Made by a program: the position numbers and the translations under genes. From assembly GCA_965248535.1 (NCBI GenBank), contig CBDFJR010000005.1, forward strand, positions 2,336,001 through 2,400,000: a stretch of DNA of 64,000 bases. The letters run 5' to 3'. The notes under the pieces were generated by a model. The model did no database searches and was not told the DNA's origin. It saw nothing but the letters and a program-made list of their open reading frames with translations. Shown in pieces: positions 3,815-35,659 of the stretch (position 1 is the first letter of the stretch; each line of letters opens with the position of its first letter). The DNA comes from Phormidesmis sp. GTDB taxonomy: Bacteria > Cyanobacteriota > Cyanobacteriia > Leptolyngbyales > Leptolyngbyaceae.

Positions 3815-4234
3815 ATGGGATTAAAAACTCGCGGTTCTGCTCAACTTGACAAAGCACAGCGGCGGATTGCGCTAATCAAGTCGATCGAAGAAACCTTGGA
3901 TCTGGGCTATGGTTTGACGGTTTCAAACTATACGACGCTGATCGAAAAGGCTCGTGCTGCCCTAGAAGCTTACAACACCTTGCTGCCGCAGTTGGGTGAA
4001 GCGAGGCAAAAACTGGAGCAGTTGGAAAAAGAACTGGGGGAAACCTCAGCGCGGATGTTGAGCGGAGTGGCGATGAAGTATGGAAAATCGAGCATCGAAT
4101 ACACCAAGGCGGGTGGCTCAAATCGAAAGAAGTCAAAAAGCTCAAGTCCAGTCTCGATCGCGGCAGTCCCAGCGCTGACGGTTGAAACGAACGGCGCGAA
4201 GAATGGCAATGGTAAAGCGATCGCAGTGAATTAA
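3815..4234 (+). CDS. Cyanobacterial hypothetical coiled-coil protein
   Basis: 139-aa ORF, heptad-rich centre, LDLGYGLT and KYGKSSIEYTKAGG motifs recalled from a widespread cyanobacterial hypothetical family. Confidence 0.8.
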   Translation: MGLKTRGSAQLDKAQRRIALIKSIEETLDLGYGLTVSNYTTLIEKARAALEAYNTLLPQLGEARQKLEQLEKELGETSARMLSGVAMKYGKSSIEYTKAGGSNRKKSKSSSPVSIAAVPALTVETNGAKNGNGKAIAVN

Positions 4235-4389
4235 TCGGGTCACGACTTGCAACTGGTTGAGAGACATGAGGTTATCTTGTGTCTCTTTTAGTTTGATTTT
4301 GGGGCGCTAAAATAAAAACTTGAGAGACATCCGGAAACGAGAGCAGATCCGTAGTTTCTCTTAGAAGCGGCATTAAAGGAGAGCGTCTG

Positions 4390-4728
4390 ATGTCAGAGAT
4401 TAGAATCACGATCGAAGGAAAGGGCGCGATCGCTGCGGCGGAAGCGCTGGTGACGTTGCCGGGGGTTTCGGGGAGTTGGGCAACCTCAGATGAGGTGAAA
4501 CGAGATGGAGCGCTAGAAGTGATTGCGACGATCGTGGGATTGGTCAGCGGGGGATTGGGCGCAGCAGAGCAGATTCGCAAGTGGTATGAGGAATATCACG
4601 GATCGGAAACGAACAAGATTGAAAATGTAGTGATCATTACCCCGAAGGAACGGATCGCGATCGAGGATGCAACGCCCGAACAAATTGTCAAGCTGCTGAA
4701 AGGGATTACAAAAGATTCACCCAAATGA
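4390..4728 (+). CDS. Small protein with central hydrophobic Gly-rich helix (EACC1/protease-co-occurring type, tentative)
   Basis: AAGGAG RBS; KRDGALEVIATIVGLVSGGLGAA segment; stop overlaps the next ATG (ATGA at 4725-4728). Confidence 0.75.
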   Translation: MSEIRITIEGKGAIAAAEALVTLPGVSGSWATSDEVKRDGALEVIATIVGLVSGGLGAAEQIRKWYEEYHGSETNKIENVVIITPKERIAIEDATPEQIVKLLKGITKDSPK

Positions 4729-7700
4729 AAACGCTTCAAATCAGCCTCACCCTAATCGATGAGCAATACGCGAGATTAACCGCCCAGCACGAGCAATCGC
4801 GGCTCATCTCTGAAAGACCGATCGCGTTAGAAAGCATTCAAACCTTGATTAAGAAGTCGAAAACCGACTTTTACAATGCTGATCCGAACCCGATCGAGGT
4901 CGGAAAACAGCTTTATTTTTGGCTGGATGGTGAGGCGCGGTGGCTCAGTCAAGCGCTGGATCAGACGCGGGAGGGGTTGGTTTTGGCGATCGAAACCGTC
5001 GAACGATTGGCGCATTTGCCTTGGGAAACGTTGCACGATCGTGCTGGGTTTCTGGTGATGCGATCGAATCCGATCGTGATTGTGCGGCAGGTCGAGGGCG
5101 TGGTGAACCAGCGGGAACTGCCCGAACGATCGCTTCAGGTGATGTTTATGGCGACCGATCCTGAAGCGCCAGGAGAAACAAAGCTGGAGTTTGAGCGGGA
5201 AGAGTCAGATATTTTGGATGCAACGCGGCGGTTGCCGATGGTGCTGCGGGTCGAGGAGAGTGGCTCGATCGAGGGATTGAAAGACATTTGGCAGCGCTAT
5301 CACGGGACGCTAGATGTATTGCATTTGTCGGGTCATGCAACTATTCGGGAGGTGAAAGGGGAGAATGGCCAGATCACCTATCAGCCATACTTTGTGACGG
5401 AGACGCTAACGGGTGATCGAGACGAAGCTACAGCAGACGCGATCGCGCAAGTGTTGCGATTTCGGGAGCCGCGACTGGTGTTTTTGTCGGGCTGTCGGAC
5501 GGGAGAAGCAGGCGGACACGGGGCGGCTCCTTCGTTTGCAGAGCAGTTGGTGAACCAAGGGGTGCCTGCGGTGTTGGGGTGGGGTCGATCGGTGGGCGAT
5601 CGTGTGGCAATTGTCGCGGCGGCGGCGCTCTATGAGAAATTGGCGACGGGATACACACTGGTTCAGGCGTTGGCGTTGACCTATCGAGCGGTGTCACAGA
5701 ATCAGGGGCTTTCGATGCGGGAGCGCAGTCAGTGGCAGTTGTTACGGCTGTATGCAGTGCGATCGCCAGAAGCTTGGGGGGCGTTTGTGCTGACATCGGG
5801 GGATCACGTCGTTGCGCCACGTCTGGAGTTTGATGATCTGTTTCTGGGAGCAGAAGGGGGGCCACGGGTCGCAAGTGCAGCAGAATTTGTCGGGCGGCGG
5901 CGGAATTTGCAGCGGTGTTTGAGGGCGCTGAAGCAGCAGCAGGGGATAGTGCTGCATGGGTTGGGTGGGGTAGGCAAGAGCACGATCGCGAAACGATTGC
6001 TGGAACGGTTGGTCGGATATACGCCGCTGGTGATTTATCGCGATTTGACCGAGGTGAGGCTGTTGGATGCGCTGCTGCGGCAGTGTGAGTCGGAGATAGG
6101 CGTTGAGATTCTCAATGGCAAATTGGGGCTGGCGCAGAAGTTGAGTAAGTTTTTTAAGCAGGGATTGAATGAGCCGAACCAGCGATTTGCGATCGTCTTA
6201 GATGATTTTGAGGCGAATTTAGAGGATCGCGGCGATGGATTGCGGGTGATGACTTCGGAAGTGGTTCCGGTGTTGCAGGGTTTGTTGGAGGGGATGACGT
6301 TATCGAAGTTGCCGCATCGGGCGATCGTGACGAGTCGATATGATTTTGGCATGGGGATGCGCGATAACCTGCATCGTGAGCCGCTGGCGGGGTTGCGCGA
6401 TGGAGATTTGAAGAAGAAGTGCGATCGCTTAGAGGCGTTTCAACCTGGGGAGATTGCGCCGGAGCTACGGAAAAAAGCGATCGCGCTCTCAGATGGAAAT
6501 CCGCGCTTGTTGGAGTGGTTGAATTTGGTGCTGCGCGATCGCGAGACGGATCAGATCAAGATTTTGGCGGCGATGGAGGGGAAGCGATCGGAGTTTCGGA
6601 CGCAGATTTTGGCGGAGGAGTTGCTGAGGCAGCAGCCAGAAGCATTGGTCGAGATGTTGGGGCGGGGGATGGTGTTTGAGATTCCGGTGCCGCGTGAGGT
6701 GTTTGGGTCGGTGTGTGAGGCTGAGGCGCAATGGATAGAGAGAGCGATCGCGCTGGGGTTGCTGGAGGTGGTGCCAGATGGAGCGGTGCGGGTTCCTCGG
6801 ATTTTGATGGTGCAGGGGTTGGCAGGGGAAGCGCTGGCGGGGGATGCGGCGCGGCAGTTGTATCGGGTTTGGTGGGAAGCGGCGAGGGGAACGGAGGAAC
6901 AGGTTTTAGAGGTGCATCGATTGGGGTTGATTGGGGGAGAAGGCACGATCGCGGCGGAGATTGCCGATCAAGTTGCAAGTCGATGGAAGAATCAAAGCCG
7001 ATTTCGTGAAGCGGTTCAGCTTTGTCGATCGACGCTAGAAGTAGCCGAAGACTTTCGCGTGCGTCATCAACTTGCACGAGTCGAAGAGCCATTGGGAGAA
7101 ACAAGTTCTGCGCTTCAAAATTACCAAAAAGCTCTAGAAGACTGTCCAGACGTAGACGATGAAGATGTTTTGCGTGAGAAAGCCACAATTATTCACAATA
7201 TGGCAATCATCTACGCCAATCAAGGACAAGTCGAGAGCGCGATCGACCTCTATCAACAATCGCTGCAACTCTTTGAGCAAATCGCAGCAATGTATGGCAA
7301 TCATCTAGGGAAAATCGCAGCAACCTTGCAATGTGAAGGGAAAAGCAGCAACCTTGCAATGGCAATCATCTACGCCAATCAAGGACAAGTCGAGAGCGCG
7401 ATCGACCTCTATCAACAATCGCTGCAAATCAAAGAGCAAATCGGCGATGTGCAGGGAAAAGCAGCAACCTTGCACCAAATGGCAGGCATCTACGCCAATC
7501 AAGGACAAGTCGAGAGCGCGATCGACCTCTATCAACAATCGCTGCAACTCAAAGAGCAAATCGGCAATGTGCAGGGAAAAGCAGCAACCTTGCACCAAAT
7601 GGCAGGCATCTACGCCAATCAAGGACAAGTCGAGAGCGCGATCGACCTCTATCAACAATCCCTGCAACTCAAAGAGCAAATCGGCGATGTGCAGGGAAAA

Positions 7701-8715
7701 GCAGCAACCTTGCACTGTATGGCAATCATCTACGCCAATCAAGGACAAGTCGAGAGCGCGATCGACCTCTATCAACAATCGCTGCAACTCCAAGAGCAAA
7801 TCGGCAATGTGCAGGGAAAAGCAGCAACCTTGCAATGGCAACATCTACGCCAATCAAGGACAAGTCGAGAGCGCGATCGACCTCTATCAACAATCGCTGC
7901 AACTCAAAGAGCAAATCGGCAATGTGCAGGGAAAAGCAGCAACCTTGCACCAAATGGCAGGCATCTACGCCAATCAAGGACAAGTCGAGAGCGCGATCGA
8001 CCTCTATCAACAATCGCTGCAACTCAAAGAGCAAATCGGCAATGTGCAGGGAAAAGCAGCAACCTTGCACTGTATGGCAAACATCTACGCCAATCAAGGA
8101 CAAGTCGAGAGCGCGATCGACCTCTATCAACAATCGCTGCAACTCGAAGAGCAAATCGGCAATGTGAAGGGAAAAGCAGCAACCTTGCACTGTATGGCAA
8201 TCATCTACGCCAATCAAGGACAAGTCGAGAGCGCGATCGACCTCTATCAACAATCGCTGCAACTCAAAGAGCAAATCGGCAATGTGCAGGGAAAAGCAGC
8301 AACCTTGCACTGTATGGCAATCATCTACGCCAATCAAGGACAAGTCGAGAGCGCGATCGACCTCTATCAACAATCGCTGCAACTCAAAGAGCAAATCGGC
8401 AATGTGCAGGGAAAAGCAGCAACCTTGCACCAAATGGCAGGCATCTACGCCAATCAAGGACAAGTCGAGAGCGCGATCGACCTCTATCAACAATCGCTGC
8501 AACTCGAAGAGCAAATCGGCGATGTGCAGGGAAAAGCAGCAACCTTAGCCATGATGTCGCAGTTGCTGATTGCGCGAGGAGAGTTTGAAACGGCGATCAC
8601 CAATCTGCGAGAATCGATCAACATTCTTCAGCGCATTGGTTCACCCGATGCCGCAACGGTTATCAACATTTTGAATCATGCCATTGAGTTACAGAACGAA
8701 GAAGCGCAAGATTAG
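4725..8715 (+). CDS. CHAT (caspase-like) protease + STAND-like P-loop NTPase + TPR array; reading frame shifted at ~7835
   Basis: CHAT dyad DVLHLSGHA / LVFLSGCRTG; Walker A GLGGVGKST; Walker B IVLDDFE; GNPRLL motif; 40-aa TPR-like repeats. One repeat is 5 nt short (115 vs 120 bp); the TPRs continue in the frame that ends at 8715. Confidence 0.88.
7209..8550 (+). repeat. Eleven near-identical ~120-bp TPR-encoding tandem repeats
   Basis: atctacgccaatcaaggacaagtcgagagcgcg starts at 7209, 7368, 7488, 7608, 7728, 7843, 7963, 8083, 8203, 8323 and 8443. Confidence 0.95.
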
Positions 8716-8725
8716 AATTTTAGAG

Positions 8726-8895
8726 TAGACCTCCTGCACGAATCCGGGAACGCCCCTAAATCCCCCATGAATGAGGGACTTTGAACTTAGAAACTTGACT
8801 CAAAGTCCCCCAGAATGGGGGATTTAGGGGGCACAACCCGCCTGAAACGCAGCGCAATCGCAGCGCAATTAGCACCGCCCTCATTCGTGAAGATC
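8726..8895. repeat. Cyanobacterial small dispersed palindromic repeat / MITE-like element
   Basis: Nested inverted repeats cccctaaatccccca..tgggggatttagggg and gggactttga..tcaaagtccc; left end tagacctcctgca recurs at 62281; related fragments at ~24630 and ~62460. Confidence 0.7.
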
Positions 8896-9752: not shown

Positions 9753-10949
9753 TTACCATTGTCCTGAATGGTCTTCATGTTGCAGATGCGTGAGTTGGCG
9801 GCGCTTCCAAGCATAGTGTAAAACATTAATCCCTAGCTCTTGAGCCGTGCGAATCGTCGTCCGTGACAAGCTCAGTGCTGCATCTAATCCCCAAGCTGAA
9901 GCTAAGTTCCCGATCGACAATACCAATCCGCCGCCACTCAAGATCTGAATATTGTGATCATTCACCTGCGGTAAAGCAGCAAACAAGAAAGGTCGCGTTC
10001 GCAGCGGATGATCACGCCGATCTTGATCAAGCGATTTAAGCGAGATCTTCAGCTTTTGGGCTAAAGCTTGAGTCGCCTCAATCAAAGGAGTCGCATCAGG
10101 AGCCGCATCGACCAATAAAGTTCCGCCACTTTTGAGATAGTTCTCTACCGCAGCAAACTCGCGGGCATTGAGCGAAAAGCCTTGTTGACCCGTCAAATAC
10201 AGCAGATCATAATTTTGGAGATCGCCTGTCCACTCGATCGAGTCGATCGTGTCCGCTCCCTGTAGCACCGGGTAAAGCACCTCAACCGCTTGCAGAAAGT
10301 AAGAGAGATTAAAAAAGTTTTGGCTACAATCCGGGTCATCATTGTTGATCTGAGCGAGAGCACATAAGCCTTGAGGACGTGCCTGCGCCCGTCGCCGATA
10401 GCGTAAGTCTAAATCGCCATATCCAGGAAAAAAAACATCATTGGGTTGACTTAAAGCCTTTTTGTCAATTTGCAGCAGAATCCGACACACCTCGACTTCA
10501 GACCCATCAGGCGGACTGCTTCTTTCATCGATCCGAAAGGTTTCTTGCACAAACTCACTGGGCTTTTGCTCTTGCAGTTCATCAGGATCGCGATACTTGA
10601 CCAACAAATAGACAGTGACAGGTTCAGAACCTTTTAGCTCCGTGGCAATCCGAAAATCGATCGACTGAGGCACAACGATCAGATTTCCAGCAACATCAAT
10701 GGCAATCCCCGGCTGAATCTGAAGCCAGAGTTTGTCACGGTAGACCGCAGCCATTTCGGCAGGCGCATCAATCAACCGCACTCCCAACCCGCAGACAATC
10801 CCCGGCTGGTTAAGCGATTGATAATGGACATTTTGGCGCTGACGATGATAAGCATGGGCGCGTCGCCAGCGATCGGCGCTAATTAAAAGTCCGTCAGAAA
10901 CGTGGAGACGTTCAAAAGATTGGATTAGGGGCGGAAACGATCGGGGCAT
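9753..10949 (-). CDS. CIS-associated protein: tail-fibre/baseplate-attachment-like N-terminus + DUF4159-like C-terminus
   Basis: ERLHVSDGLLISADRW..QPGIVCGLGV..IQPGIAIDVAGN N-terminus; YDLLYLTG..YLKSGGTLLVD..HPL..AWG..ELGINVLHYA C-terminus; last gene of the baseplate operon. Confidence 0.7.
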   Translation of the reverse strand: MPRSFPPLIQSFERLHVSDGLLISADRWRRAHAYHRQRQNVHYQSLNQPGIVCGLGVRLIDAPAEMAAVYRDKLWLQIQPGIAIDVAGNLIVVPQSIDFRIATELKGSEPVTVYLLVKYRDPDELQEQKPSEFVQETFRIDERSSPPDGSEVEVCRILLQIDKKALSQPNDVFFPGYGDLDLRYRRRAQARPQGLCALAQINNDDPDCSQNFFNLSYFLQAVEVLYPVLQGADTIDSIEWTGDLQNYDLLYLTGQQGFSLNAREFAAVENYLKSGGTLLVDAAPDATPLIEATQALAQKLKISLKSLDQDRRDHPLRTRPFLFAALPQVNDHNIQILSGGGLVLSIGNLASAWGLDAALSLSRTTIRTAQELGINVLHYAWKRRQLTHLQHEDHSGQW

Positions 10950-10978
10950 CTCTTTAACACCTTGAAGAATGATCAGAA

Positions 10979-12070
10979 CTAAGACGGTGGCTCAATGATT
11001 AACTCATAAGTGCAGAAAGCAGGTTTTTCATGATCGATAATTCGTCGCACTAAAGGCTCGTCGATTAGGCTCCCCGCAGTCAGCCGCAGCCGCACCGCAA
11101 ACTGGTAGGGCTGCCCACCTCCAATCACTGCATCGACTCCTAAAGAAGACCCTCCCAACTCAAACCCTCGACCAAACGGCTCGGTAATCGCGATCGCTCG
11201 ATCGGCTTCTGAGGGCATCTGATCGTCTAACGGCAGCCCGGTATATAAATGCAGATAAAGCCGCAACCCTTTGCGAGTGCCGCGCCAGCGATATAGCTCG
11301 ATCGCTCGCTTAATCAGTTGTCGCTGTTGATGCAAATCCCAGCTTGGGTCGCTTGACCACGCCACCCAGTGCGATAAAAAAGGCAGTAATGCTTCGGGAG
11401 CAGTTAGGGGGTCGAGATTGGCCCACATACTCGTAAAGCTATTGACGACAGGTTCAAACGCTTGCTCAAACACTTTGATGAAGCGACTGATAAAATCAAC
11501 TTCTCGATAGAGCAGCGGCAAAAAAGTGACGTAAGTACTGTGAGGACGCACATACAGATCTACATCCGACTGCTGCATGAGTTTAGGCATCCCACCGCCC
11601 TCATGGTCAGAGTGAGCATATACTGACAAGCAACTGCGAAAATTGAGCTTCAAGCGGTCTCGATCGACAATATCCGCGTCAGGATCTTCAAAAAAGGTTT
11701 CAGGAACCAAAAATAATAGCTCACCATACCAAACTCCCTTTGAGGGAACCTCGATCGTAGAACTATCTACAGCTTGCCACTCTAAGTTAGTTGCCACGGG
11801 CAGTCCTAGCTCACCAAGACTCATCCGACACCAATGCAGAGGAAAGTTTCCCTCAATTTGAAACGTGAGCCGCAGCGCATGAGACTCCCAGTTCTGGATC
11901 TGCACCGACATCCGACTCGGATCTCCAGGATGAAGCACCAAACTTGCATTGCCAGAGGTCACTACCGTCTGTTCAGCAAGACCCAGCAGCCCCGACTGTG
12001 GAGCCGCTTCAGGAATTTGCATCGGGGTCAACTGTAAGCTGATGCTGTGCTGAGTCAGAGTGGGGAGCAT
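10979..12070 (-). CDS. Phage tail protein I-like baseplate wedge subunit (CIS)
   Basis: FLPLLYRE..LDPLTAPEALLPFLSHWVAW..IKRAIELYRWRGTRKGL..EKPAFC. Confidence 0.85.
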   Translation of the reverse strand: MLPTLTQHSISLQLTPMQIPEAAPQSGLLGLAEQTVVTSGNASLVLHPGDPSRMSVQIQNWESHALRLTFQIEGNFPLHWCRMSLGELGLPVATNLEWQAVDSSTIEVPSKGVWYGELLFLVPETFFEDPDADIVDRDRLKLNFRSCLSVYAHSDHEGGGMPKLMQQSDVDLYVRPHSTYVTFLPLLYREVDFISRFIKVFEQAFEPVVNSFTSMWANLDPLTAPEALLPFLSHWVAWSSDPSWDLHQQRQLIKRAIELYRWRGTRKGLRLYLHLYTGLPLDDQMPSEADRAIAITEPFGRGFELGGSSLGVDAVIGGGQPYQFAVRLRLTAGSLIDEPLVRRIIDHEKPAFCTYELIIEPPS

Positions 12071-12124
12071 AAGCCAATGAGCTAGTTTATGGAACTGGAA
12101 ACACTAGAGAGAAACGGTCTGAAG

Positions 12125-14338
12125 TCACGATCGAATCACATTGATCACATGGCTCGATCGCAGCCGTTCATCCGCCCACGAACAAATCAAGCCCAACTCA
12201 CCCGGATCGATAAAGGGTTCTGGTGAGGGCTGACGTTGCCAACGTTCACCCTGTCGCCGAATTGGAAACAGCAAGACTGCACCCAAATAGCGCACTCCTG
12301 GCGTTTGTTGCAGCAGTGCCATCAGGTCTGAAGGATAAACCGGACGACCCAACTCCCATCCTTTGCCTTCTGCTCCTCCGGTGATCGGATTGAGATAGCG
12401 ATAAAGATTGCTCCGCAGCCGATGGACGATCTCTTGTCGTGCCGCAGGATTGCTGTAAATTGATTCGAGGGCGACTTCGGCTTGAACCGAGACTCCGACA
12501 TACTCTGGGACTTCTAGCTGCACCTGCACCCCAAGCAGCCGTCGTTCATCTAAATCATGCAGAATCTGCTCTTGCAGCGCCGCAGTCAGGGCAAAGCGGT
12601 CTGGCGGAATCCCTGACTGCACGGTGTCGGCGGTTGCTTGGGGCACAATCAACAAGCCAACGCTTCCCGCACTGCGGTTGGCACCTGCTGGCAGACAGCG
12701 CACCCGCGAGATTGCGCCTCTGCCTGCTTGGTGGGTCAACACTTCAAAATCTTCGGCGGTGACAGCTCGATCGCGCGATCGTAGCGTTAGAGGCGCTCGC
12801 AGCACCGCTTGATCGAGCGATTCGGCATCCGCGCCATACAGTGCAGGGGCATGATTAGTGACGCTGGCAACATAGGGAATGGCAGACTTGAGAAACCTCA
12901 GCGTCCCATCTTGCACATTTCCTTTTTTTCCGCCACCCGTGCGATACGCCATCAGCGTAATCACCGCTCCGCGTGCGGGAACTGCACCATACTGATGTTC
13001 TAATCGGCGACGCGACGATTCTCTTCCCGTCACAGCCGCATCAATCTCGCTAGAACTGGGGAGTTGCGTTTGCCAATCGCTCAACGATCGCGCCTCTGTC
13101 TCAAGCGGTTGCTTCAGCGATTCCGGTTCTCGAATCAGCGGCCCAAACTGAATTGTTCCCGTGAGTGAATTAATCGTGTAGTGGCGATCGTCGGGAGCCG
13201 ACTCCGCAAAATCTTTCACTTCTTGCCACGTTTGCGGCAATCCTCCGGCTGGAGTGACCACAATATACTCGTTCGATCGTCGCTCTAAAATCGGGGGAGC
13301 CTGAACCTGAAAACTCTGCCCCGGTTTGCCATTGCTGATGCCCAACTGCTCCTGCTGAATCAAAACGCTCTGGCTTGCCCGCACCGTGCCGCCCATCGAT
13401 CGCACCGCAATGCCCGTCACTCGTGGAGAACTGGTGTAACCGGGTTGAGTCGCGGTCGGCTCGATCAAAGCACACCGCAGCCAGCGCCCCCGATAAGCGG
13501 TAAAGCTCACGATCGGAAACTGCTCTGGCAAATGCAACACAATGTCTGCCCCTTGTTCGGGGCTTCCCCCTTGTTGAGCCACTTCATGAAAACTAAAGCC
13601 GCCCGTTGCGTCGTCAGATTCATGCAGCAACACCGATTGCCAGTTTTGCCCGTTCCAAGCTTCCCAACGACGCGGCGGATGAGCAGGATCGATGCCCGTT
13701 GGCGTTCCTCTCGCTCCTTTCAAGGTCAGGGCTAAAACATTGCCATCAAGATCTTCATCTGCCCCCAAAACGAGGTAAAAGCAATTACCAGCCTGGGGTT
13801 GTTCCGAAAACAATGATTGCTCATTGCCCGACCAAATACTCTCGGTTTGCTCTGCCCACTGACTGCGATCGTGGAGAGCTTGCGGTGAATGATCTGCCGT
13901 TGAAGCCGTCAGAAAATGTCTGAGGATGGCTTTCCCGATTGTTAAATTCTCATTGCTGCTAAACACGATCGCTTCCTGCGTTTCGGTGCGTTCGGTGGCG
14001 ACTTCTGTTCCTTGAACAATTTGATAGGGTTCTGGCAGAGTGGTGGTGAGATAAAACGTAAGCTGAGTTTGGGCAGGAGCAGGTGGCTGAAGGCGAACCC
14101 CTAAAAGTTCTAAAAACGCCACATAATTCTTACGCGGCACTTGATTAAACCGCATCAGCATTTGATCGGTTAACCAAGCAAACAATTCAACCAGCGTAAT
14201 GCCTGGATCACTGAGGTTGTGATCTGTCCATTCTGGACAATAGCGGGGAATCCGCAGCAGGCACTCTTCGACTAATTCATCAAAAGTACGATCGTCGAGA
14301 TTAGAACTCGGTAGTTTGGGTAAAAAATCAAATTCCAC
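12125..14338 (-). CDS. Baseplate J/gp6-like wedge protein (CIS)
   Basis: LDDRTFDELVEE..RIPRYCPEWTDHNLSDPGITLVELFAW; YRTGGGKKGNV; GADAES..RAVTAEDFE; GTG start. Confidence 0.92.
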   Translation of the reverse strand: MEFDFLPKLPSSNLDDRTFDELVEECLLRIPRYCPEWTDHNLSDPGITLVELFAWLTDQMLMRFNQVPRKNYVAFLELLGVRLQPPAPAQTQLTFYLTTTLPEPYQIVQGTEVATERTETQEAIVFSSNENLTIGKAILRHFLTASTADHSPQALHDRSQWAEQTESIWSGNEQSLFSEQPQAGNCFYLVLGADEDLDGNVLALTLKGARGTPTGIDPAHPPRRWEAWNGQNWQSVLLHESDDATGGFSFHEVAQQGGSPEQGADIVLHLPEQFPIVSFTAYRGRWLRCALIEPTATQPGYTSSPRVTGIAVRSMGGTVRASQSVLIQQEQLGISNGKPGQSFQVQAPPILERRSNEYIVVTPAGGLPQTWQEVKDFAESAPDDRHYTINSLTGTIQFGPLIREPESLKQPLETEARSLSDWQTQLPSSSEIDAAVTGRESSRRRLEHQYGAVPARGAVITLMAYRTGGGKKGNVQDGTLRFLKSAIPYVASVTNHAPALYGADAESLDQAVLRAPLTLRSRDRAVTAEDFEVLTHQAGRGAISRVRCLPAGANRSAGSVGLLIVPQATADTVQSGIPPDRFALTAALQEQILHDLDERRLLGVQVQLEVPEYVGVSVQAEVALESIYSNPAARQEIVHRLRSNLYRYLNPITGGAEGKGWELGRPVYPSDLMALLQQTPGVRYLGAVLLFPIRRQGERWQRQPSPEPFIDPGELGLICSWADERLRSSHVINVIRS

Positions 14339-14340
14339 GG

Positions 14341-14757
14341 CTACTCCGCCATTGAGATTAAGTAGAACGGATAAACAAAGCTGTAGGCATCAGGATAGTT
14401 TTTTAGCCGATAGTCGATAATGATGTCTACTCTGCCGCGCACGGGGTCTGGATCAGTTCGGACTTCATCAATTAGAATGCGCGGTTCCCAAGTCCGCAGC
14501 GCCTCTAAGACATAGAGGCGAATCCGCAGCAGGGTATCACTATTGAGGGGAGCAAACACAAGCTCAGACAGGCGGCAGCCAAAGTTTGGGCGATAGACCC
14601 GCTCTCCCAGCCCGGTTCGCAGAATAATCCAAATCGCTTCTTTCACTTTTTGGGCAGCCACACTGACCTGCATACCCCCCTGAACATTGAGATGGAGGGG
14701 AAACGCAAAGCCTGCGCCTAAATGCTCTCGCTGCTGACTGTTCCGCAGATCTGCCAT
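14341..14757 (-). CDS. GPW/gp25-family baseplate protein (CIS)
   Basis: HLGAGFAFP..IILRTGLGERVYRPNFGCRL..WEPRI; ATG at 14757 after an AGAGGA RBS. Confidence 0.92.
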   Translation of the reverse strand: MADLRNSQQREHLGAGFAFPLHLNVQGGMQVSVAAQKVKEAIWIILRTGLGERVYRPNFGCRLSELVFAPLNSDTLLRIRLYVLEALRTWEPRILIDEVRTDPDPVRGRVDIIIDYRLKNYPDAYSFVYPFYLISMAE

Positions 14758-14954
14758 AGGTTCCTCTGCTGAGTATGGCACTTAGAATACTGGGCTTGTC
14801 GTTAGGCTTCACTAGCTGAAAGTCGAAATCTAGTCCGCGATCGCTCACTTTACGATCGCCCCGCTTGACATTGCGTGAGCGATCGCGGACTGTGGGACAG
14901 TCGGGCAAGATCTTTGCAGTCGAGCGAACTCTTTATACTGTAAAATAGGCTCTC

Positions 14955-16364
14955 ATGATTGGTCGAGTGCTGGATGGACGTTATCGAGTCGTTGCTGAAC
15001 TTGGCGGTGGAGGGTTCAGCCGGACTTATATTGGAGAAGATACCCGCCGACCGGGGAATCCCAAATGTGTAATTAAACATCTCTTCCTCGATCGCTTCGA
15101 TCCCCAGCAGGTCGTCATAGCAAAGCGTTTGTTTAAAGGCGAGGCAGAAACGTTAGAAAAACTGGGGCGACATGACCAGATTCCGCAACTGTTTGCCTAC
15201 CTAGAAGAAGAGTTTTGTCTAGTCCAGGAATTTATCGAAGGGGTTCCTCTCAACGTTGAGTTAGTGCCAGAACAACACTGGAGCGAAGCAAAAGTCGTAG
15301 AATTGCTCAACGATGTTTTAGGCATTTTGGAGTATGTGCATCAACAAGGCGTGATTCACCGAGATATCAAACCCGAAAATCTGATTCGGCGGCAGTCTGA
15401 TGGCAAGTTTGTGCTCATTGACTTTGGAGCCGTGAAGCTGATTCCGCAATCGCTGGGGACTCAAGCCCAGATCAATCCGACGATCATGATTGGTACGCTA
15501 GGCTACTATCCAACTGAGCAAGGGCAAGGCAGACCTCGACCGAGCAGCGATCTCTATGCTCTGGGCATGATTGCGATTCAAGCGCTGACGGGAATTCATC
15601 CAAGAGCGATCGAAGAAGAGCCGACAACGGGCGAAATTCAGTGGCAACATCTAATTCCAGTGACTCCAAAGTTGGCAGACGTGCTGACCAAATTGGTTCG
15701 CTACCACTTCAAAGACCGTTATCTGACAGCAACCGACGCGATCGCGGCAGTGCGATCGCTTCAGACTCAACCGCAAGGAAGGCCCAGATCGACGATCGTT
15801 TGGGGGAGCGCGATCGCGGCGGGGGGAGTTGCGATCGCGGCGTTGATCTTTCTCAAATTTTCTCAACCAACTCCGCAAACGACTCCAGCCAACGGTGCAG
15901 TGCAGTCTTCTTCTACGCCCTCACGTCCAATACCAACCAATCCGCAAACTCCTTCGGCACTTCCAAGCCAAGTGCGATATAACTACGAGAAATTGCAGAT
16001 TGAATTAAGACGGCAAAACCTCGAAGAGGCTAACCAAACGACCTTCAATCTTATGTTAGGAATTGCAGGGCAAAAATCAAGCAATTCTGGTGCGTTCGAT
16101 CCCACTGAATGGAACCGCTTTCCTTGTGATCAGCTTGTCAAAATCGACCAATTGTGGAGTAGCGCAAGCAATGGGGAGCAGGGATTTAGTGTGCAATCTG
16201 ATGTTTATCAGAAGTTTGGAAAAAACATTAGACAGTTCTACAGGGCTGTGGGTTGGGCGGATGAGCGAGGCACCATTAAGAAAAAGATCGATTTCAACAA
16301 TCTACGGAAGGGTTCTCTACCGGTTTCAAGCGCATTCCAGGGGTATGCAGCTTGTAAACTATAG
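14955..16364 (+). CDS. Hanks-type Ser/Thr kinase with TM helix and C-terminal GUN4-like domain
   Basis: LGGGGFSRTY, VIK, IHRDIKPEN, DFG, GTLGY, SDLYALG; TM WGSAIAAGGVAIAALIFL; FPCDQLVKIDQLWSSASNGEQGFSVQ GUN4 motif. Confidence 0.93.
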   Translation: MIGRVLDGRYRVVAELGGGGFSRTYIGEDTRRPGNPKCVIKHLFLDRFDPQQVVIAKRLFKGEAETLEKLGRHDQIPQLFAYLEEEFCLVQEFIEGVPLNVELVPEQHWSEAKVVELLNDVLGILEYVHQQGVIHRDIKPENLIRRQSDGKFVLIDFGAVKLIPQSLGTQAQINPTIMIGTLGYYPTEQGQGRPRPSSDLYALGMIAIQALTGIHPRAIEEEPTTGEIQWQHLIPVTPKLADVLTKLVRYHFKDRYLTATDAIAAVRSLQTQPQGRPRSTIVWGSAIAAGGVAIAALIFLKFSQPTPQTTPANGAVQSSSTPSRPIPTNPQTPSALPSQVRYNYEKLQIELRRQNLEEANQTTFNLMLGIAGQKSSNSGAFDPTEWNRFPCDQLVKIDQLWSSASNGEQGFSVQSDVYQKFGKNIRQFYRAVGWADERGTIKKKIDFNNLRKGSLPVSSAFQGYAACKL

Positions 16365-16522
16365 CCTTGCTAACTCTGTAGAGCTGTTGGCATTGTGATT
16401 CATTGGCTAAAGTGCATCAGTCGTTCAAAGTTTCACCTAATACACCTTGTCAGAGACTAAGCATTTAAAACTATGACTACTTAAACCTTTATAAGCCACA
16501 CATGGTACTGGTAAAGAAAGCA

Positions 16523-17035
16523 ATGCAATTCAAAAGTCATTTCTTTTCAATTGTCTTGGGAATGCTAGGTTCATTTTTCTGGGGCATTTCACCCACGATC
16601 GCGGCTGAAGCAAGCACAACCCAGGATGATTACACTCGATTGCAAACCGCGCTCAATCAGCGAGACTTTAAAACGGCTGATGCCCTGACTTACAAGCTCA
16701 TGCTGAGAATTGCAGGACAAAAATCTAGCAATTCTCGTGCGTTTAATCTCACTGAATGGAACAGCTTTCCTTGTGGTCATCTGATCAAAATTGACCAGCT
16801 ATGGAGCAGTGCAACCAATGGAGAGCAAGGATTTAGTGTGCAATCTCAGCTTTATCAAGGAGCAACAGCCCATAAAGCCGAGCAAGTCTACAGAACGGTA
16901 GGGTGGATGGATGGACGCGGAAAGTTCAAAAAGCCGAATTATCAATCTCCACTGTCGGGTTCTTTACCCTTCCAACTCGCTTGGCAAGACGGGAACGAAC
17001 ATCGGTTCGAGAAGTTTACGGCTTGTAACTTGTAA
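16523..17035 (+). CDS. Secreted stand-alone GUN4-like domain protein
   Basis: Signal-peptide-like MQFKSHFFSIVLGMLGSFFWGISPTIAA; FPCGHLIKIDQLWSSATNGEQGFSVQ; alternative start at 16502. Confidence 0.85.
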   Translation: MQFKSHFFSIVLGMLGSFFWGISPTIAAEASTTQDDYTRLQTALNQRDFKTADALTYKLMLRIAGQKSSNSRAFNLTEWNSFPCGHLIKIDQLWSSATNGEQGFSVQSQLYQGATAHKAEQVYRTVGWMDGRGKFKKPNYQSPLSGSLPFQLAWQDGNEHRFEKFTACNL

Positions 17036-17063
17036 ACCTTTGAGCAATCAAATTGGAGGAACA

Positions 17064-18029
17064 ATGCAATTAAAGCACCGTTTTTTATTCTTTATATTAG
17101 GAACGCTTGGTTCAGTATGTTTGAGCATTTGTGGCGCGATCGCGGCTGAGGCCCAGACGGTCAGAGCGTCCGCAACGATTGCCCAAGGCGCGACTCCACC
17201 TCCGCTTCCACCGGATACCCCTTCAACAGATTTGAATGCTGTAAGAGCGATCCATCAGCAGATCAACGATGGCTATTCTCAACGAGCTGAAGCCGCCGCC
17301 GCCGCCGCAAATCAGCGTCAACAGGCCCGTCAGCAACAGTTCGACGATACCGTCGAAAAACATGATGCCCAAGCGGAAGAGGATGCAAAACAAGCGGTAG
17401 TCCCTACGCGCACACCGTTCCAACCGGAAACGGAAAATCTGGCTCAAGCCGCGACACCGCCTCCCCTTCCACCTGACTCGCCGATGAGAGTTGAGACACC
17501 GCCTCCCCTTCCACCTGATTCTCCGGTGAGCGACTCACCTCAACCAAAGGCAGAATATTCTATCGTCCAGGCTCCCGTTGTATCGTCAAGCCAGCCAAAA
17601 TCTAGCGAAAAAGCAAATGCGAAAAAGCTGAATCTGGGTAAACTATCGTTTGCGTGTGCCGCCAAGGATGGAACACCTACCACGATCGCGAAGCTAAACG
17701 ATCGTGAGTTAGGCGTAATTGTTTGGACTTCTACATTTTTCGCGCCGACAGGGTTTAATCCGCAAATGCGCTGTGATTCTGTATCTAAACGGTTTGAAGC
17801 ATACAGCAAAGCGCACAAACTGATCTATCTCGCGATCGGCAAACTCAACAACCAACGTGTCCTTTGTGCAACGAGTCAGGAAAATGGTAGCTGCGGGGAT
17901 GGCACTGTAAATAATGCAGGATTGCTGTTGACGCTCAAGCCTGACAGTAATGCTCAAGAAGAGTTAGATCAACTGTCTAAGGTATTAATAAGTGAGGCAA
18001 ACACCCCGTCTGACCCCCTAAAAGAGTAA
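17064..18029 (+). CDS. Secreted COP23-domain protein with Pro-rich repeats
   Basis: GGAGG RBS before ATG 17064; signal peptide; three TPPPLPPD(T/S)P repeats; FAC..PTT..IVW..F..GFNPQMRCDSVSKRF..GKLNNQRVLC..LLLTL COP23-like C-terminus. Confidence 0.8.
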   Translation: MQLKHRFLFFILGTLGSVCLSICGAIAAEAQTVRASATIAQGATPPPLPPDTPSTDLNAVRAIHQQINDGYSQRAEAAAAAANQRQQARQQQFDDTVEKHDAQAEEDAKQAVVPTRTPFQPETENLAQAATPPPLPPDSPMRVETPPPLPPDSPVSDSPQPKAEYSIVQAPVVSSSQPKSSEKANAKKLNLGKLSFACAAKDGTPTTIAKLNDRELGVIVWTSTFFAPTGFNPQMRCDSVSKRFEAYSKAHKLIYLAIGKLNNQRVLCATSQENGSCGDGTVNNAGLLLTLKPDSNAQEELDQLSKVLISEANTPSDPLKE

Positions 18030-18057: not shown

Positions 18058-18234
18058 ATGCAAGAAATTGAAAGGTTTTTCACCAATTTGTTCAGTGGAA
18101 TCTTTAATCGCTTCAAGTACGATGCGATAGAGGTTGCTGAGAGAAAAGCGCGAGAAGCCATTGATTCAAAGGTGAATCAGCAGCATCAATCTAAACCAGA
18201 AGAGCAAGAGGAGCGTGAAAAGGAGCAATGGTAA
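18058..18234 (+). CDS. Small hypothetical protein
   Basis: AAGGTG before ATG; amphipathic N-terminus (ERFFTNLFSGIFNRF) and charged tail; overlaps the 3' end of the convergent DUF1822 gene. Confidence 0.5.
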   Translation: MQEIERFFTNLFSGIFNRFKYDAIEVAERKAREAIDSKVNQQHQSKPEEQEEREKEQW

Positions 18235-18926
18235 CCTTCAAGTATTGGTGAGAACCCAAGCTCGATCGCAATAGACCTATTGTTGTTCAATGAGCGGGCA
18301 GCTTGTTTCTGATTAAAAGTCTTCTGAAGCCATTGTGTGAACCTGATGGTCGTCTTGGTTAGAGCAACTAAAGACTGGTTTATGGCTGGATCGCTAATCG
18401 GTAACGCGATCTCAGCAGGGTGTAAGAAATGACAATAGAATAGCAAATGGTTCGGTTCAGTATCTAAGACCGCGAGTGGTAGCTCATAGTAACCATCTTG
18501 GAGGTTGCAATGCTTGAGATCGCGAATTAGCTCCTCATAGCGGCAAAAGCCCCGCACCGTCACCAATTCCTGCTCTTCTGACACCTCATGTAGTACATAA
18601 AAGTGCGCTGTCAGCTTAGGTTGCTCGACTACAGCTTGAGGAATTCGCACGGTTTCATCTAAAATATGCTCGACGGCAATTAGACAAAGTGTGAACCCAC
18701 ACGCCTCAATATAACAAGCAGAGTCAGTGAGTTTAGTCGATCGCTCAACAGCTTTTTCTGGTAATCGGTCTCTCAACCACTGCTCAAAACCCAGTAATGC
18801 CAGCGCGTTTAAATAGCTTTCCCACTGTTGCGCTTCGGGCGATGAGCAATTACTCATTGCTTTTGCCTGTTCAATTTGTTCAGGCTCTAGCCAAATCATT
18901 TCTGACAACAACAGTCTAGAATTCAT
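18186..18926 (-). CDS. DUF1822-family protein, apparently C-terminally truncated
   Basis: QWESYLNALALLGFEQWL..AHFYVLHEV..VRGF; similarity to the 33281 paralogue stops after RFTQWLQKTF; start overlaps the sigma-like gene stop (ATGA). Confidence 0.75.
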   Translation of the reverse strand: MNSRLLLSEMIWLEPEQIEQAKAMSNCSSPEAQQWESYLNALALLGFEQWLRDRLPEKAVERSTKLTDSACYIEACGFTLCLIAVEHILDETVRIPQAVVEQPKLTAHFYVLHEVSEEQELVTVRGFCRYEELIRDLKHCNLQDGYYELPLAVLDTEPNHLLFYCHFLHPAEIALPISDPAINQSLVALTKTTIRFTQWLQKTFNQKQAARSLNNNRSIAIELGFSPILEGYHCSFSRSSCSSGLD

Positions 18927-30136: not shown

Positions 30137-30901
30137 TTATTTTGGAGCGCAGCAGGGGGTGAGAGTAGGGGGAGCGGTAAGGTTTTGTTGCTGAAGGAGT
30201 TGATTCCAGGCGGCGATCGTAGGGTTAGTTTTAGAGATACGAAGTTGAGTCCCTAGTTCCGACAGGGCATCGTACCAAATTCCAGATTTTGCATAACTCG
30301 TCGCACGGTCTAACGGCGTTTTGGCGATCGCGAGTTCTTGGCGTAATTTGGGAGAAGCCGTGATGCGTTGAAGGGTGCCCCGACGAACCACAGGAGTATC
30401 GATCGCTTCATCGCAAAAGATTGCCAGTTCCCAGCGATAGGTTCCTTGAGTTAGAGGTGGGGCGGTCGTGGGCATCGAAAGGCTGATGATCTGGGAAGTC
30501 GAGGTTGTTTTAGGAATGCGGAGCGTTGTTTTATAAATCAGCTTGCCCTTGGCATCTTGGAGTCGCCATTGGGCAGGAGCTTCGGTGTTAATTTGGGCGG
30601 GAAGGCTAAACCAAACCGTTGGACGATCGCGAACCGTTAAGCCCCACAGCGTGTCTGGACGAATCGCCGGAACCAAGGCTGTAAGGCTCTGGTAGCGTTC
30701 TTCACAGGCACCTCGATGCCCACCGCCCTGCCCACGATCGCTCGGTTCACCCGGATCAGGAGGAGTCGGTGGATCAAAGCGAATTTGCTGCGGAATTTGA
30801 GGGGTTGCTTCGCTAAGGGGAATGTCTCCCCCTAAACTAGCGATCAAGAGCGTGATTGCTGCGATGAATGCTGGAGGGAATACTGTTGTTAAACTAGACA
30901 T
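30137..30901 (-). CDS. DUF928 family secreted protein
   Basis: Signal-like N-terminus; GGGHRGAC, LTALVP, GLT..RPTVWF, YRWELAIFC, YAKSGIWYDAL. Confidence 0.88.
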   Translation of the reverse strand: MSSLTTVFPPAFIAAITLLIASLGGDIPLSEATPQIPQQIRFDPPTPPDPGEPSDRGQGGGHRGACEERYQSLTALVPAIRPDTLWGLTVRDRPTVWFSLPAQINTEAPAQWRLQDAKGKLIYKTTLRIPKTTSTSQIISLSMPTTAPPLTQGTYRWELAIFCDEAIDTPVVRRGTLQRITASPKLRQELAIAKTPLDRATSYAKSGIWYDALSELGTQLRISKTNPTIAAWNQLLQQQNLTAPPTLTPCCAPK

Positions 30902-30944
30902 CTCAGGAGTTTCTCTAATAGGTCAACGATAGTCTTAACAGGAT

Positions 30945-33278: not shown

Positions 33279-33280
33279 GA

Positions 33281-34432
33281 CTACACCACAAAAGGTAGGA
33301 TGAGGGTGTCAGCGGCGATTGCAAGCTCTATGGTAAAGCGAGTCGCGATCGGGCATTTAAACCGTTTTAGTTGAATGAGATTGTCTTGATCGGTCGCTTC
33401 AACTGTTTGGATCATTTCACCCGCAGCCGATCCCGATCGCAGCGTTAGTTGCAGTCCGCTCGGCAGCGTAGACTGTGGATCAGCCGATCGAAGCTGAAGG
33501 CGAATAGTGAGGCGATCGGGGGAATCTGGATCGAGTTGTACGATTAACAGCAGCGATCGTTGATTGAGATCGACTACTTTGACGCGCTGAACAGAGGTTG
33601 GTGCAGTTTCAGCCCCTTGTCTAAAACTATAGGCAAGCGCATTGTTGTAATCAAACAAACTCTCTAGGCTCTGCCAACCCGCGTCAAAACTCTGCTGTAG
33701 CCAACGGCTAAGATTGACCAAAGGAGCCTTCTCTCGGCGTTGAAGATTGACTAAGCGATCGCGCCACTCAGCTTGCTCGACCAATGCGCCCCATTGGGCA
33801 AACGGCAGCACCAAGCGAGGCTCAATCACTAATGGATTCGCCAACTGCTGCAAGAGCGTTTCTGCTTGGGTGGTGGTGATTGGATTGAGCGGCGCAACGG
33901 TTGAGCGAGTCACTTCATTTAGTCCTGCCTGCTGCGCGACCCAAAACACGCTGATATCTCGAATCAGATAGGCAGCATCTAGTGAGTAAGTGCGATCGTC
34001 GGCATTATAGGTTCCCAGGGTTTTAATCTGGGCGTGAGTGGTATATCCCCAGATCCGCAGCGTTGACTCATCAGGATCGATTTGAACTGCAAAATAATAG
34101 TCCCCAATCCAACTCGACAAATCCATCCATTCTTGAGAGACTCGCAGTTCAGACGTGTCGATCGAGCAAGTGGGAATCAGAATTAATCGGCAGTCATCCC
34201 AGACGATCGAGGTTCCCTTGACCAGTTGCCAAGCCGACGTGAGTTGCGAACCTGATAACCCGCTTTGAGCCTGAGGCACATACTCAGCTTGAATCCAGGG
34301 CAACACGGTCTGCAAACAGACTGGATTGAGATAAACACTCCAAGCCTGCCCCTCAAGTTGCCTCCACGCCGCCTCTTGCACAGAGGCAGAAATCTCTAAA
34401 TTCAGATCAGTCAGACACTCTAAAAAAGTCAT
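33281..34432 (-). CDS. DUF1822-family protein
   Basis: AWSVYLN..LPW, RLILIP, ELRVSQEWMDLSSWIGDYYFAVQI, IWGYTTH, VNLSRWLQ..GWQ. Confidence 0.88.
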   Translation of the reverse strand: MTFLECLTDLNLEISASVQEAAWRQLEGQAWSVYLNPVCLQTVLPWIQAEYVPQAQSGLSGSQLTSAWQLVKGTSIVWDDCRLILIPTCSIDTSELRVSQEWMDLSSWIGDYYFAVQIDPDESTLRIWGYTTHAQIKTLGTYNADDRTYSLDAAYLIRDISVFWVAQQAGLNEVTRSTVAPLNPITTTQAETLLQQLANPLVIEPRLVLPFAQWGALVEQAEWRDRLVNLQRREKAPLVNLSRWLQQSFDAGWQSLESLFDYNNALAYSFRQGAETAPTSVQRVKVVDLNQRSLLLIVQLDPDSPDRLTIRLQLRSADPQSTLPSGLQLTLRSGSAAGEMIQTVEATDQDNLIQLKRFKCPIATRFTIELAIAADTLILPFVV

Positions 34433-34434
34433 CG

Positions 34435-35649: not shown

Positions 35650-35659
35650 GACAAAAACC

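Follow-up and report, generated by a model that had tools for sequence, protein, structure and literature searches.

The systems closest to the locus analysed here are gene pairs in which a small protein of the EACC1 family is encoded next to a caspase-like protease. 'System 4' of Kaur, Burroughs, Iyer and Aravind (2020; PMC7159879) consists, according to the available sections of that article, of a 5' EACC1 gene followed by a 3' gene that starts with a caspase-superfamily peptidase. A single hydrophobic segment of EACC1 is conserved and bears a small-residue patch, and the system is described there as prevalent in actinobacteria, sporadic in proteobacteria and associated with multicellular bacteria. 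For Ktedonobacter, the available part of the report by Evans et al. (2025; 10.1101/2025.11.14.688446) states that an EACC1 protein encoded upstream of a caspase-Avs12 protein is cut at about Asp49 into pieces of 5.7 and 7.1 kDa, that of the two only the C-terminal fragment is toxic, that only the cleaved EACC1 leaks liposomes, and that toxicity in cells requires a phage tail-connector protein and the catalytic cysteine; Avs12 is treated, in the text available from it, in PMC13581612. Here, we analysed a stretch of 64,000 nt from Phormidesmis sp. (assembly GCA_965248535.1, contig CBDFJR010000005.1, positions 2,336,001 to 2,400,000), referred to as the window, which holds on its + strand at 4390-8715 a small gene for a 112-aa protein (P0001), followed by a gene for a large protein (P0002) with a CHAT protease domain, a STAND nucleoside triphosphatase (NTPase) and a tetratricopeptide repeat (TPR) array. 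We read this pair, with a probability of roughly three in four, as an EACC1-caspase module whose two genes would serve abortive infection or cell suicide.

Compared by description, the pair resembles the EACC1 and caspase-Avs12 pair of Ktedonobacter racemifer (10.1101/2025.11.14.688446, as far as its available text goes) in that a small EACC1-type gene lies 5' of one whose product joins an N-terminal caspase-fold protease to a STAND NTPase and a C-terminal sensor. The cut falls there, and is predicted to fall here, in the linker before the hydrophobic segment and beside an acidic residue (Asp49 there, R38-D39 here), giving fragments of 5.7 and 7.1 kDa there and a predicted 4.0 and 7.9 kDa, approximately, here, and in both cases there is a confident model of protease and substrate (interface predicted TM-score, ipTM, of 0.77 there; interaction prediction score from aligned errors, ipSAE, of 0.78 here). 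Unlike in K. racemifer, the small protein here lies under the Pfam EACC1 threshold, the protease is of CHAT type, the sensor is made of near-identical 40-aa TPR units without a match to the Avs models in the libraries used, and the window copy is frameshifted. With System 4, as set out in the available text of PMC7159879, the locus shares the gene order, the combination of a constant small component with a variable caspase-fused one, the conserved hydrophobic segment with its small-residue patch and the tie to multicellular bacteria; it differs in belonging to a large cyanobacterial branch (287 loci), with the Pfam model derived from that article over its cut-off in 0 of 401 cyanobacterial genomes.

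In the mechanism that we favour, the 112-aa protein would be a latent pore-forming effector, whose soluble ferredoxin-like pro-form buries the glycine-rich hydrophobic segment of residues 41-59. The downstream protein would be a sensor resembling the NOD-like receptors (NLRs) and the Avs proteins: its TPR array would bind the trigger, and its STAND NTPase would oligomerise and thereby activate the N-terminal CHAT protease (His204/Cys257), which is predicted to cut the beta2-beta3 loop of the small protein at a conserved [RK][DE]G motif (K37-R38-D39-G40). The cut would strip off an N-terminal half of ~4 kDa and free a C-terminal fragment of ~7.9 kDa, which may oligomerise in the membrane and so kill the cell. 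We infer cleavage, toxicity, pore formation and a phage trigger from the Ktedonobacter precedent. In bacterial gasdermins with adjacent caspase-like or CHAT proteases, the protease strips the inhibitory part from a latent pore-former and the cell dies. The likeness to the present pair is the arming of a latent pore-former by a neighbouring protease; the differences are that the small protein here is predicted to be a ferredoxin-like sandwich of ~110 aa, an unrelated fold, and that its inhibitory part would be N-terminal, and P0001 had no gasdermin match in Pfam or PADLOC. A mechanism of this kind had been put forward in an earlier note on this DNA and is supported by our analysis in silico. 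It is not new, as it is already known for the EACC1 family from the experiments on the Ktedonobacter EACC1-caspase-Avs12 pair (10.1101/2025.11.14.688446, available text).

The features of the pair are given below in window coordinates.

4259-4287, + strand: terminator-like hairpin of 13 pairs after the upstream 139-aa open reading frame (ORF), likely the 5' boundary of the module's transcription unit
4378-4381, + strand: GGAG, Shine-Dalgarno-like site 8 nt 5' of the small gene's ATG, read from the sequence
4390-4728, + strand: small gene, ATG start, 112 aa (P0001), putative divergent EACC1-like pro-toxin with a predicted ferredoxin-like pro-form
4486-4515, + strand: codons of the beta2-beta3 loop (residues 33-42), predicted cleavage region from the AlphaFold2 (AF2) fold and the complex model
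4498-4509, + strand: KRDG codons (residues 37-40)
4510-4566, + strand: codons of the conserved hydrophobic, small-residue-rich segment ALEVIATIVGLVSGGLGAA (residues 41-59)
4725-4728, + strand: ATGA overlap of the small-gene stop and the large-gene start
4725-8588, + strand: frame-0 ORF of the large gene (P0002), ATG start, 1287 aa
4725-8715, + strand: CHAT-STAND-TPR gene, full extent over both frames
4725-7845, + strand: CHAT-STAND-TPR gene, in-frame portion of about 1040 codons
4899-5792, + strand: CHAT caspase-fold protease domain (PF12770), residues 59-356
5334-5336 and 5493-5495, + strand: codons of the catalytic His204 and Cys257
5883-6260, + strand: STAND-type P-loop NTPase core (AAA_16), residues 387-512
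5958-5984 and 6192-6212, + strand: Walker A and Walker B
7212-8546, + strand: TPR array, with near-identical units of 120 nt (40 aa) in tandem after an initial in-frame one of 159 nt
7731-7845, + strand: short TPR unit, 115 nt where 120 is the norm, with 5 nt absent from its last ~20 nt and a shift to the +1 frame
7846-8715, + strand: seven more TPR units and the C-terminal cap, in the +1 frame only, stop at 8713-8715

The small gene is coupled to the large one through the ATGA at 4725-4728, where stop and start overlap both in the ORF list and in the sequence, as the earlier note had it for an NLR-like neighbour; its description of a 112-aa protein with KRDG followed by a hydrophobic segment likewise agrees with the translation, which has KRDG at residues 37-40 and ALEVIATIVGLVSGGLGAA at 41-59. 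For the large protein it had claimed an intact CHAT dyad, intact Walker A and B motifs and a TPR array: the dyad and the Walker motifs are intact, and the TPR array has lost its frame, a loss that had also been hinted at and that we could trace to the 115-nt unit at 7731. The upstream 139-aa ORF (3815-4234) was considered as a third component and rejected, because among related loci only the closest, L001, conserves it. A minus-strand ORF at 4272-4580, which overlaps the small gene and has no family match, was treated as spurious. A promoter scan found none 5' of 4390 and fewer sites than in shuffled controls.

The association of the two genes could be followed in the relatives of P0001. A filter-free search of 1.84 billion representatives returned 142 relatives at E<=1e-3, and contigs from one genome per species gave 287 loci encoding the family. 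For the linkage counts we used all 80 loci that were retained from these 287. The earlier note had let its proposal depend on whether homologues of the small gene are tied to proteases, and they are: a CHAT-NTPase gene lies 3' of the small gene on the same strand in 69/80 loci. It starts no more than 400 nt downstream in 52 of the 80; in 12 it is split or lies somewhat further 3', in many cases after a PIN or DUF29 gene that has been inserted, and CHAT was found in five more, which comprise the remaining Pseudanabaena-type loci and loci with motif variants. The domains of these downstream genes are CHAT, together with AAA_16, NB-ARC or nSTAND1. The pairing of the small gene with a CHAT gene is far beyond chance. 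Two kinds of insertion between the EACC1-like and the CHAT gene deserve mention in their own right, both of them small, selfish-looking genes, namely one with a PIN domain (L001, 3264-3674) and a DUF29 gene (~7284-7781) in the Pseudanabaena-type loci L007, L008, L009, L012, L014 and L029.

The kinship with EACC1 became apparent through the relatives of the small protein. EACC1 is represented in Pfam by PF19953, a model of 107 positions with a gathering score of 23.6 bits. Among 112 relatives of P0001, 14 match this model at E<=0.01, collinearly over model positions ~13-106, and P0127, alone of the 112, exceeds the cut-off (24.9 vs 23.6 bits), with no family besides EACC1 being matched by more than two of the 112 in the Pfam scan. 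An alignment of the cyanobacterial sequences compared by hhalign with the EACC1-matching relatives gave a probability of 100% (E 3.7e-40, 110 columns), a result that is partly circular because those relatives had been retrieved with P0001. In a language-model search of the ESM Atlas, which we take as a lead, PF19953 was found in 27 of 30 named neighbours (best score 0.94). P0001 also corresponds to the published description of EACC1 in being, by alignments and AF2, a small protein (~100-120 aa) with one strongly conserved hydrophobic segment that bears a central small-residue patch, flanked by alpha and beta elements. The collinear matches of the 14 relatives and the named Atlas neighbours uphold the suggestion of the earlier note that the small protein is of EACC1 type.

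Within the family, 29 close homologues have lengths of 83-114 aa, and all of those that carry an organism name are cyanobacterial. The gene is single-copy in its own genome and has matches at E<=0.001 in 9/41 related genomes, six of them strong and three weak; apparent fused forms in frames of 545-548 aa turned up in G422 and G080, of which the G422 match, one of the weak ones, proved to be a gamma-glutamyltranspeptidase and was discarded as spurious, and G080 was set aside. P0001 reads ...SDEVKRDG-ALEVIATIVGLVSGGLGAA-EQIRKWYEEY..., where the segment at residues 41-59 has a grand average of hydropathy of 1.77. In the family alignment G10, A16, L20, G28, I48, A59, K64 and W65 are invariant, A46, T47, G50 and G54 are present at 90% or more, and the core IATIVGxxxG...AEQIRKW is nearly invariant. 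A 1068-aa protein of tandem ~90-aa repeats (P0101) matched P0001 residues 4-35 in 14 stretches, which could reflect either an artefact of translating a repeat or an EACC1-like N-terminal piece in repeated form.

AF2 models P0001 from the 112-sequence alignment with a predicted local distance difference test (pLDDT) of 83.6 and a predicted TM-score (pTM) of 0.77. The predicted elements are beta1 (4-10), alpha1 (13-21), beta2 (26-32), a loop (33-42), beta3 (43-51), alpha2 (55-70), beta4 (77-83), beta5 (88-90) and alpha3 (96-107), which together form a ferredoxin-like alpha/beta sandwich with KRDG in the exposed beta2-beta3 loop. The hydrophobic helix expected by the earlier note thus holds as a conserved segment and is not predicted to be a helix in the pro-form, because in the predicted fold these residues make up the buried strand beta3 and the start of alpha2. 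A search of PDB sequences with the family profile returned nothing below E 0.66.

A complex was predicted between P0001 and residues 1-370 of P0002, which include the CHAT domain (41-row alignment), alongside three controls. The three runs gave ipSAE values of 0.72, 0.81 and 0.78 (median 0.78), whereas the best of the three controls reached 0.00; the runs have at least 81% of their contacts in common and the partner pLDDT is at least 83. A mark of this kind is reached by 116 of 157 solved complexes and by 2 of 215 mismatched pairs in the calibration of the tool, counts that hold only roughly here because our own alignments were used. On the CHAT side, the predicted interface includes residues 203-206 and 255-258, on either side of His204 and Cys257, and on the side of P0001 residues 33, 35-41 and 43-45; in a predicted exosite, CHAT residues 43-55 meet strands beta1, beta4 and beta5 of P0001. 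The model supports a substrate-like pose of the KRDG loop at the active site, and the predicted cut near KRDG by the CHAT protease gains from it in so far as residues 35-41 are set at H204/C257 (0.78 vs 0.00). The scissile bond could follow R38 or D39, because R or K occupies position 38 in 106/112 relatives, and D or E position 39 in 75/112; a cut after D39 would yield fragments with computed masses of 4.0 and 7.9 kDa.

The large protein has the parts that such a mechanism would call on. The CHAT domain (PF12770) is recognised at residues 59-356 with a score of 86.6 bits (cut-off 24, E 2.7e-24), and H204 and C257 are invariant in 41 homologous CHAT domains. AAA_16 spans residues 387-512 and contains the Walker motifs GLGGVGKST (A, at 412) and IVLDDFE (B, at 490), and TPR repeats follow from about residue 760; homologues of P0002 match NB-ARC and nSTAND1 as well. 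P0002 is thus tripartite in the manner of Avs proteins, with an N-terminal effector, a STAND NTPase with Walker A/B and a C-terminal repeat sensor, which is frameshifted here. It has at least 1177 relatives at E<=1e-20, ranging from 782 to 1515 aa, and its nearest homologues are 79-80% identical.

Several results weigh against the reading as an EACC1-caspase module. P0001 itself lies below the PF19953 gathering score and does not match this model even at E<=10; its only match in Pfam up to E<=10 is a sub-threshold one to PDDEXK_10, and none of the PADLOC and NCBIfam models matched. The PDDEXK_10 match (E 0.0066, 16.8 bits vs a cut-off of 21.2) was rejected as chance because only 2 of the 112 relatives share it. 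The genome of the window is itself among the 401 in which PF19953 stays below its cut-off. Foldseek returned nothing at E<=1e-3 for the P0001 model, and the best result of VIA wide (Z 7.0, root-mean-square deviation 3.4 Å, 83 aligned residues), to ribosomal and ferredoxin-like proteins, is a generic match that falls inside the stated background of that tool. P0002 has only P-loop-sized matches to Avs4 (E 0.029 in PADLOC 2023; E 0.0088 and 13 bits vs a cut-off of 1500 in NCBIfam), the libraries used being ones without Avs12-21 models. In 11/80 loci there is no CHAT gene downstream of the small gene: none was found in seven (L007, L012, L017, L023, L024, L038 and L076), in L067 it lies directly upstream instead, and L050, L068 and L079 stop at a contig edge. 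The sensor gene of the present copy is frameshifted. Finally, the EACC1-like protein of locus L081 was tried as a relative of P0001 and rejected, with a BLASTP E of 8.7 and an hhalign probability of 2.9% against the family alignment.

At the locus L081 (1447-3288), in another cyanobacterium (G284), an EACC1-like protein that gives the single near-threshold PF19953 hit among the 401 genomes, at 23.0 bits, is encoded directly 5' of a Peptidase_C14 caspase gene, making a pair of the same kind as that of the window, without sequence relation to it. A search seeded with P0127 for more canonical EACC1 sequences found only three proteins. On the sequence comparisons taken together, we conclude that the P0001 family is a divergent cyanobacterial branch of EACC1 that lies beyond the reach of the current Pfam model.

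The state of this particular copy has to be considered apart from the mechanism of the family. Tandem Repeats Finder reports 10.2 copies of a 120-nt period at 7328-8546, with 95% matches. Anchored on their conserved start, the units begin at 7212, 7371, 7491, 7611, 7731, 7846 and onward to 8446. The first (7212-7370) is a patchwork of partial units, 159 nt long and in frame, and every later unit measures 120 nt but the one at 7731, which measures 115 nt and ends ...TTGCAATGGCAACATC where the others end ...TTGCACTGTATGGCAATCATC, five bases being absent near its end. Past 7845, frame 0 encodes ~247 aa of arginine- and serine-rich junk and stops at 8588. Without the shift, the protein would be some 1330 residues long. 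We hold it somewhat better than an even bet that the frameshift is real; unless an assembly error accounts for it, the 5-nt deficit in one TPR unit, which shifts the frame of the sensor, probably leaves this copy inactive.

If the frameshift is real, the pair would be a decaying one, with a dead sensor-protease and a small gene that is kept as harmless without its protease. We put this a little above even; it concerns only this copy, in which the module would be idle in this strain, and is compatible with the mechanism proposed for the family. The 115-nt unit puts seven units and the C-terminus out of frame, and a random sequencing or consensus error is disfavoured because the 4-nt-shorter 'TTGCAATGGCAA' variant recurs in a second unit (7212-7370). 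Related loci point the same way, with split or short CHAT ORFs in L005, L006, L055, L064 and L077, a transposase directly after a short CHAT ORF of 334 aa in L078, and tandem-repeat periods that are not multiples of 3 in L006, L010, L018, L028 and L041. Against decay, the small gene is undamaged, as are the CHAT dyad and the Walker motifs, and there is no near-identical intact allele for comparison, because the nearest homologues are just 79-80% identical. The region is present in two public runs, both of one study, as short Logan contigs with no indels listed; these are uninformative on the frameshift, showing an indel neither way, because they are broken up in the repeats and leave 7860-7987 uncovered.

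The deficit could also be an artefact of assembly or consensus in near-identical repeats, with the gene intact and functional in the organism, which we consider to have clearly less than an even chance. Ten units at 95% identity are a hard target for assemblers, the genome is in five contigs, which we take as consistent with a long-read assembly, and the rest of the gene has no other damage. The deficit, at 5 nt, lies outside any homopolymer, however, four of the five absent bases recur in another unit, and the short contigs of the two runs gave no read evidence on the deficit.

Repeat arrays also occur in relatives: high-scoring tandem repeats lie 3' of the small gene in 35/77 related loci, with periods that are mostly 120 nt or multiples of it and in several cases not multiples of three. 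Across the eight full 120-nt units of the window (7371-8445), there are 10 variable nucleotide sites, 9 of which fall in amino-acid-changing codons, mainly at unit positions 36 (Q/C) and 39 (G/I/N). Fungal NLRs reportedly contain highly similar internal TPR, ANK or WD repeats (work attributed to Dyrka et al., 2014). As in those receptors, a STAND NTPase is followed here by near-identical tandem repeats that differ mostly by amino-acid changes and whose number varies among relatives; unlike them, the present protein is bacterial and carries a protease effector, and a single array of eight full units is too few to prove diversifying selection. One may speculate that the units form a fast-evolving specificity cassette, as in fungal NLRs, in which unit shuffling and gene conversion would re-assort the hypervariable positions 36 and 39 and so alter what the sensor recognises, and that off-length units, like the 115-nt one of this copy, would turn the receptor off and on within populations, making it a phase-variable immune receptor in control of a suicide pore; the periods in relatives that are not multiples of three would then be the same switch in the off state. 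We regard this as improbable.

The same protease-gated mechanism might serve another purpose, namely developmental or stress-induced cell death in filaments (for instance of sacrificial cells), rather than phage defence; we consider this unlikely. All records in which the family turned up are cyanobacterial, and of the genera named there nearly all are filamentous. EACC1 systems go with a multicellular habit in 650/671 organisms in Table 1 of PMC7159879, and fusions of EACC1 with DnaK, reported in the available text of Evans et al. (10.1101/2025.11.14.688446), suggest stress sensing. Against such a role stand the patchy distribution, with strong matches in 6/41 related genomes, and the response of the characterised homologous system to a phage protein (same source, available text). 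The varying repeat arrays, the frequently disrupted copies and the selfish insertions (PIN in L001, DUF29 in Pseudanabaena) are typical of defence genes.

Least probable of all is that the small protein, as a sensor or anchor at the membrane, switches on the caspase, which then frees other effectors, the original hypothesis of Kaur et al. (2020), for which the conserved hydrophobic segment with its glycine patch was read as a transmembrane sensor (PMC7159879, available sections), but against which AF2 gives a soluble alpha/beta sandwich with the segment buried, the complex model sets the loop of the small protein in the protease active site like a substrate, the large protein carries no other effector domain, and the Ktedonobacter experiments found EACC1 to be a cleaved toxic effector (10.1101/2025.11.14.688446, available text).

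The DNA around the pair contains other elements. Just past the stop at 8715, many different loose contig ends from the two runs fall at 8724-8726 and 8753-8767, which suggests a short dispersed repeat or a variable junction within 8724-8767, at the 3' edge of the module. Directly next to the pair, on the - strand at 9753-14781, lies a short run of phage-baseplate-like genes, consisting of DUF4159 (9753-10949), Tail_P2_I (10979-12070), Baseplate_J (12125-14338) and gp25 (14341-14781). The ORFs scanned near it include none for sheath, tube or capsid, and the run may represent either a minimal baseplate module or what is left of a larger one. Three adjacent + strand genes follow at 14955-18029, a Ser/Thr kinase-GUN4 fusion (14955-16364), a stand-alone GUN4-like gene (16502-17035) and a COP23-domain gene (16911-18029). 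A second, unrelated caspase-type cluster on the - strand at 30137-36982 comprises DUF928, CHAT-CHASE2, DUF1822, a 404-aa ORF without family and a stand-alone CHAT protein, and another DUF1822 gene is found at 18186-18926.

Returning to the EACC1-caspase reading of the pair, four things are new relative to the described systems. A large unannotated cyanobacterial branch is placed in EACC1, as judged from its sequence relationships; the [RK][DE]G loop conserved in this branch has a predicted docking position in the CHAT active site; a ferredoxin-like pro-form is predicted for this branch; and the sensor repeat arrays are near-identical and unstable.

We believe that, with these results, a large cyanobacterial family now labelled 'hypothetical protein' acquires a name and a mechanism that can be tested. 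Defence surveys of filamentous cyanobacteria probably under-count protease-gated pore modules, because the small protein escapes Pfam EACC1 as well as PADLOC and NCBIfam. For experiments, the [RK][DE]G loop that precedes the hydrophobic segment is now a concrete candidate for the cleavage region, and an exosite on the protease is predicted as well. The repeat arrays, in turn, offer a bacterial case for studying the diversification of NLR-type sensors.

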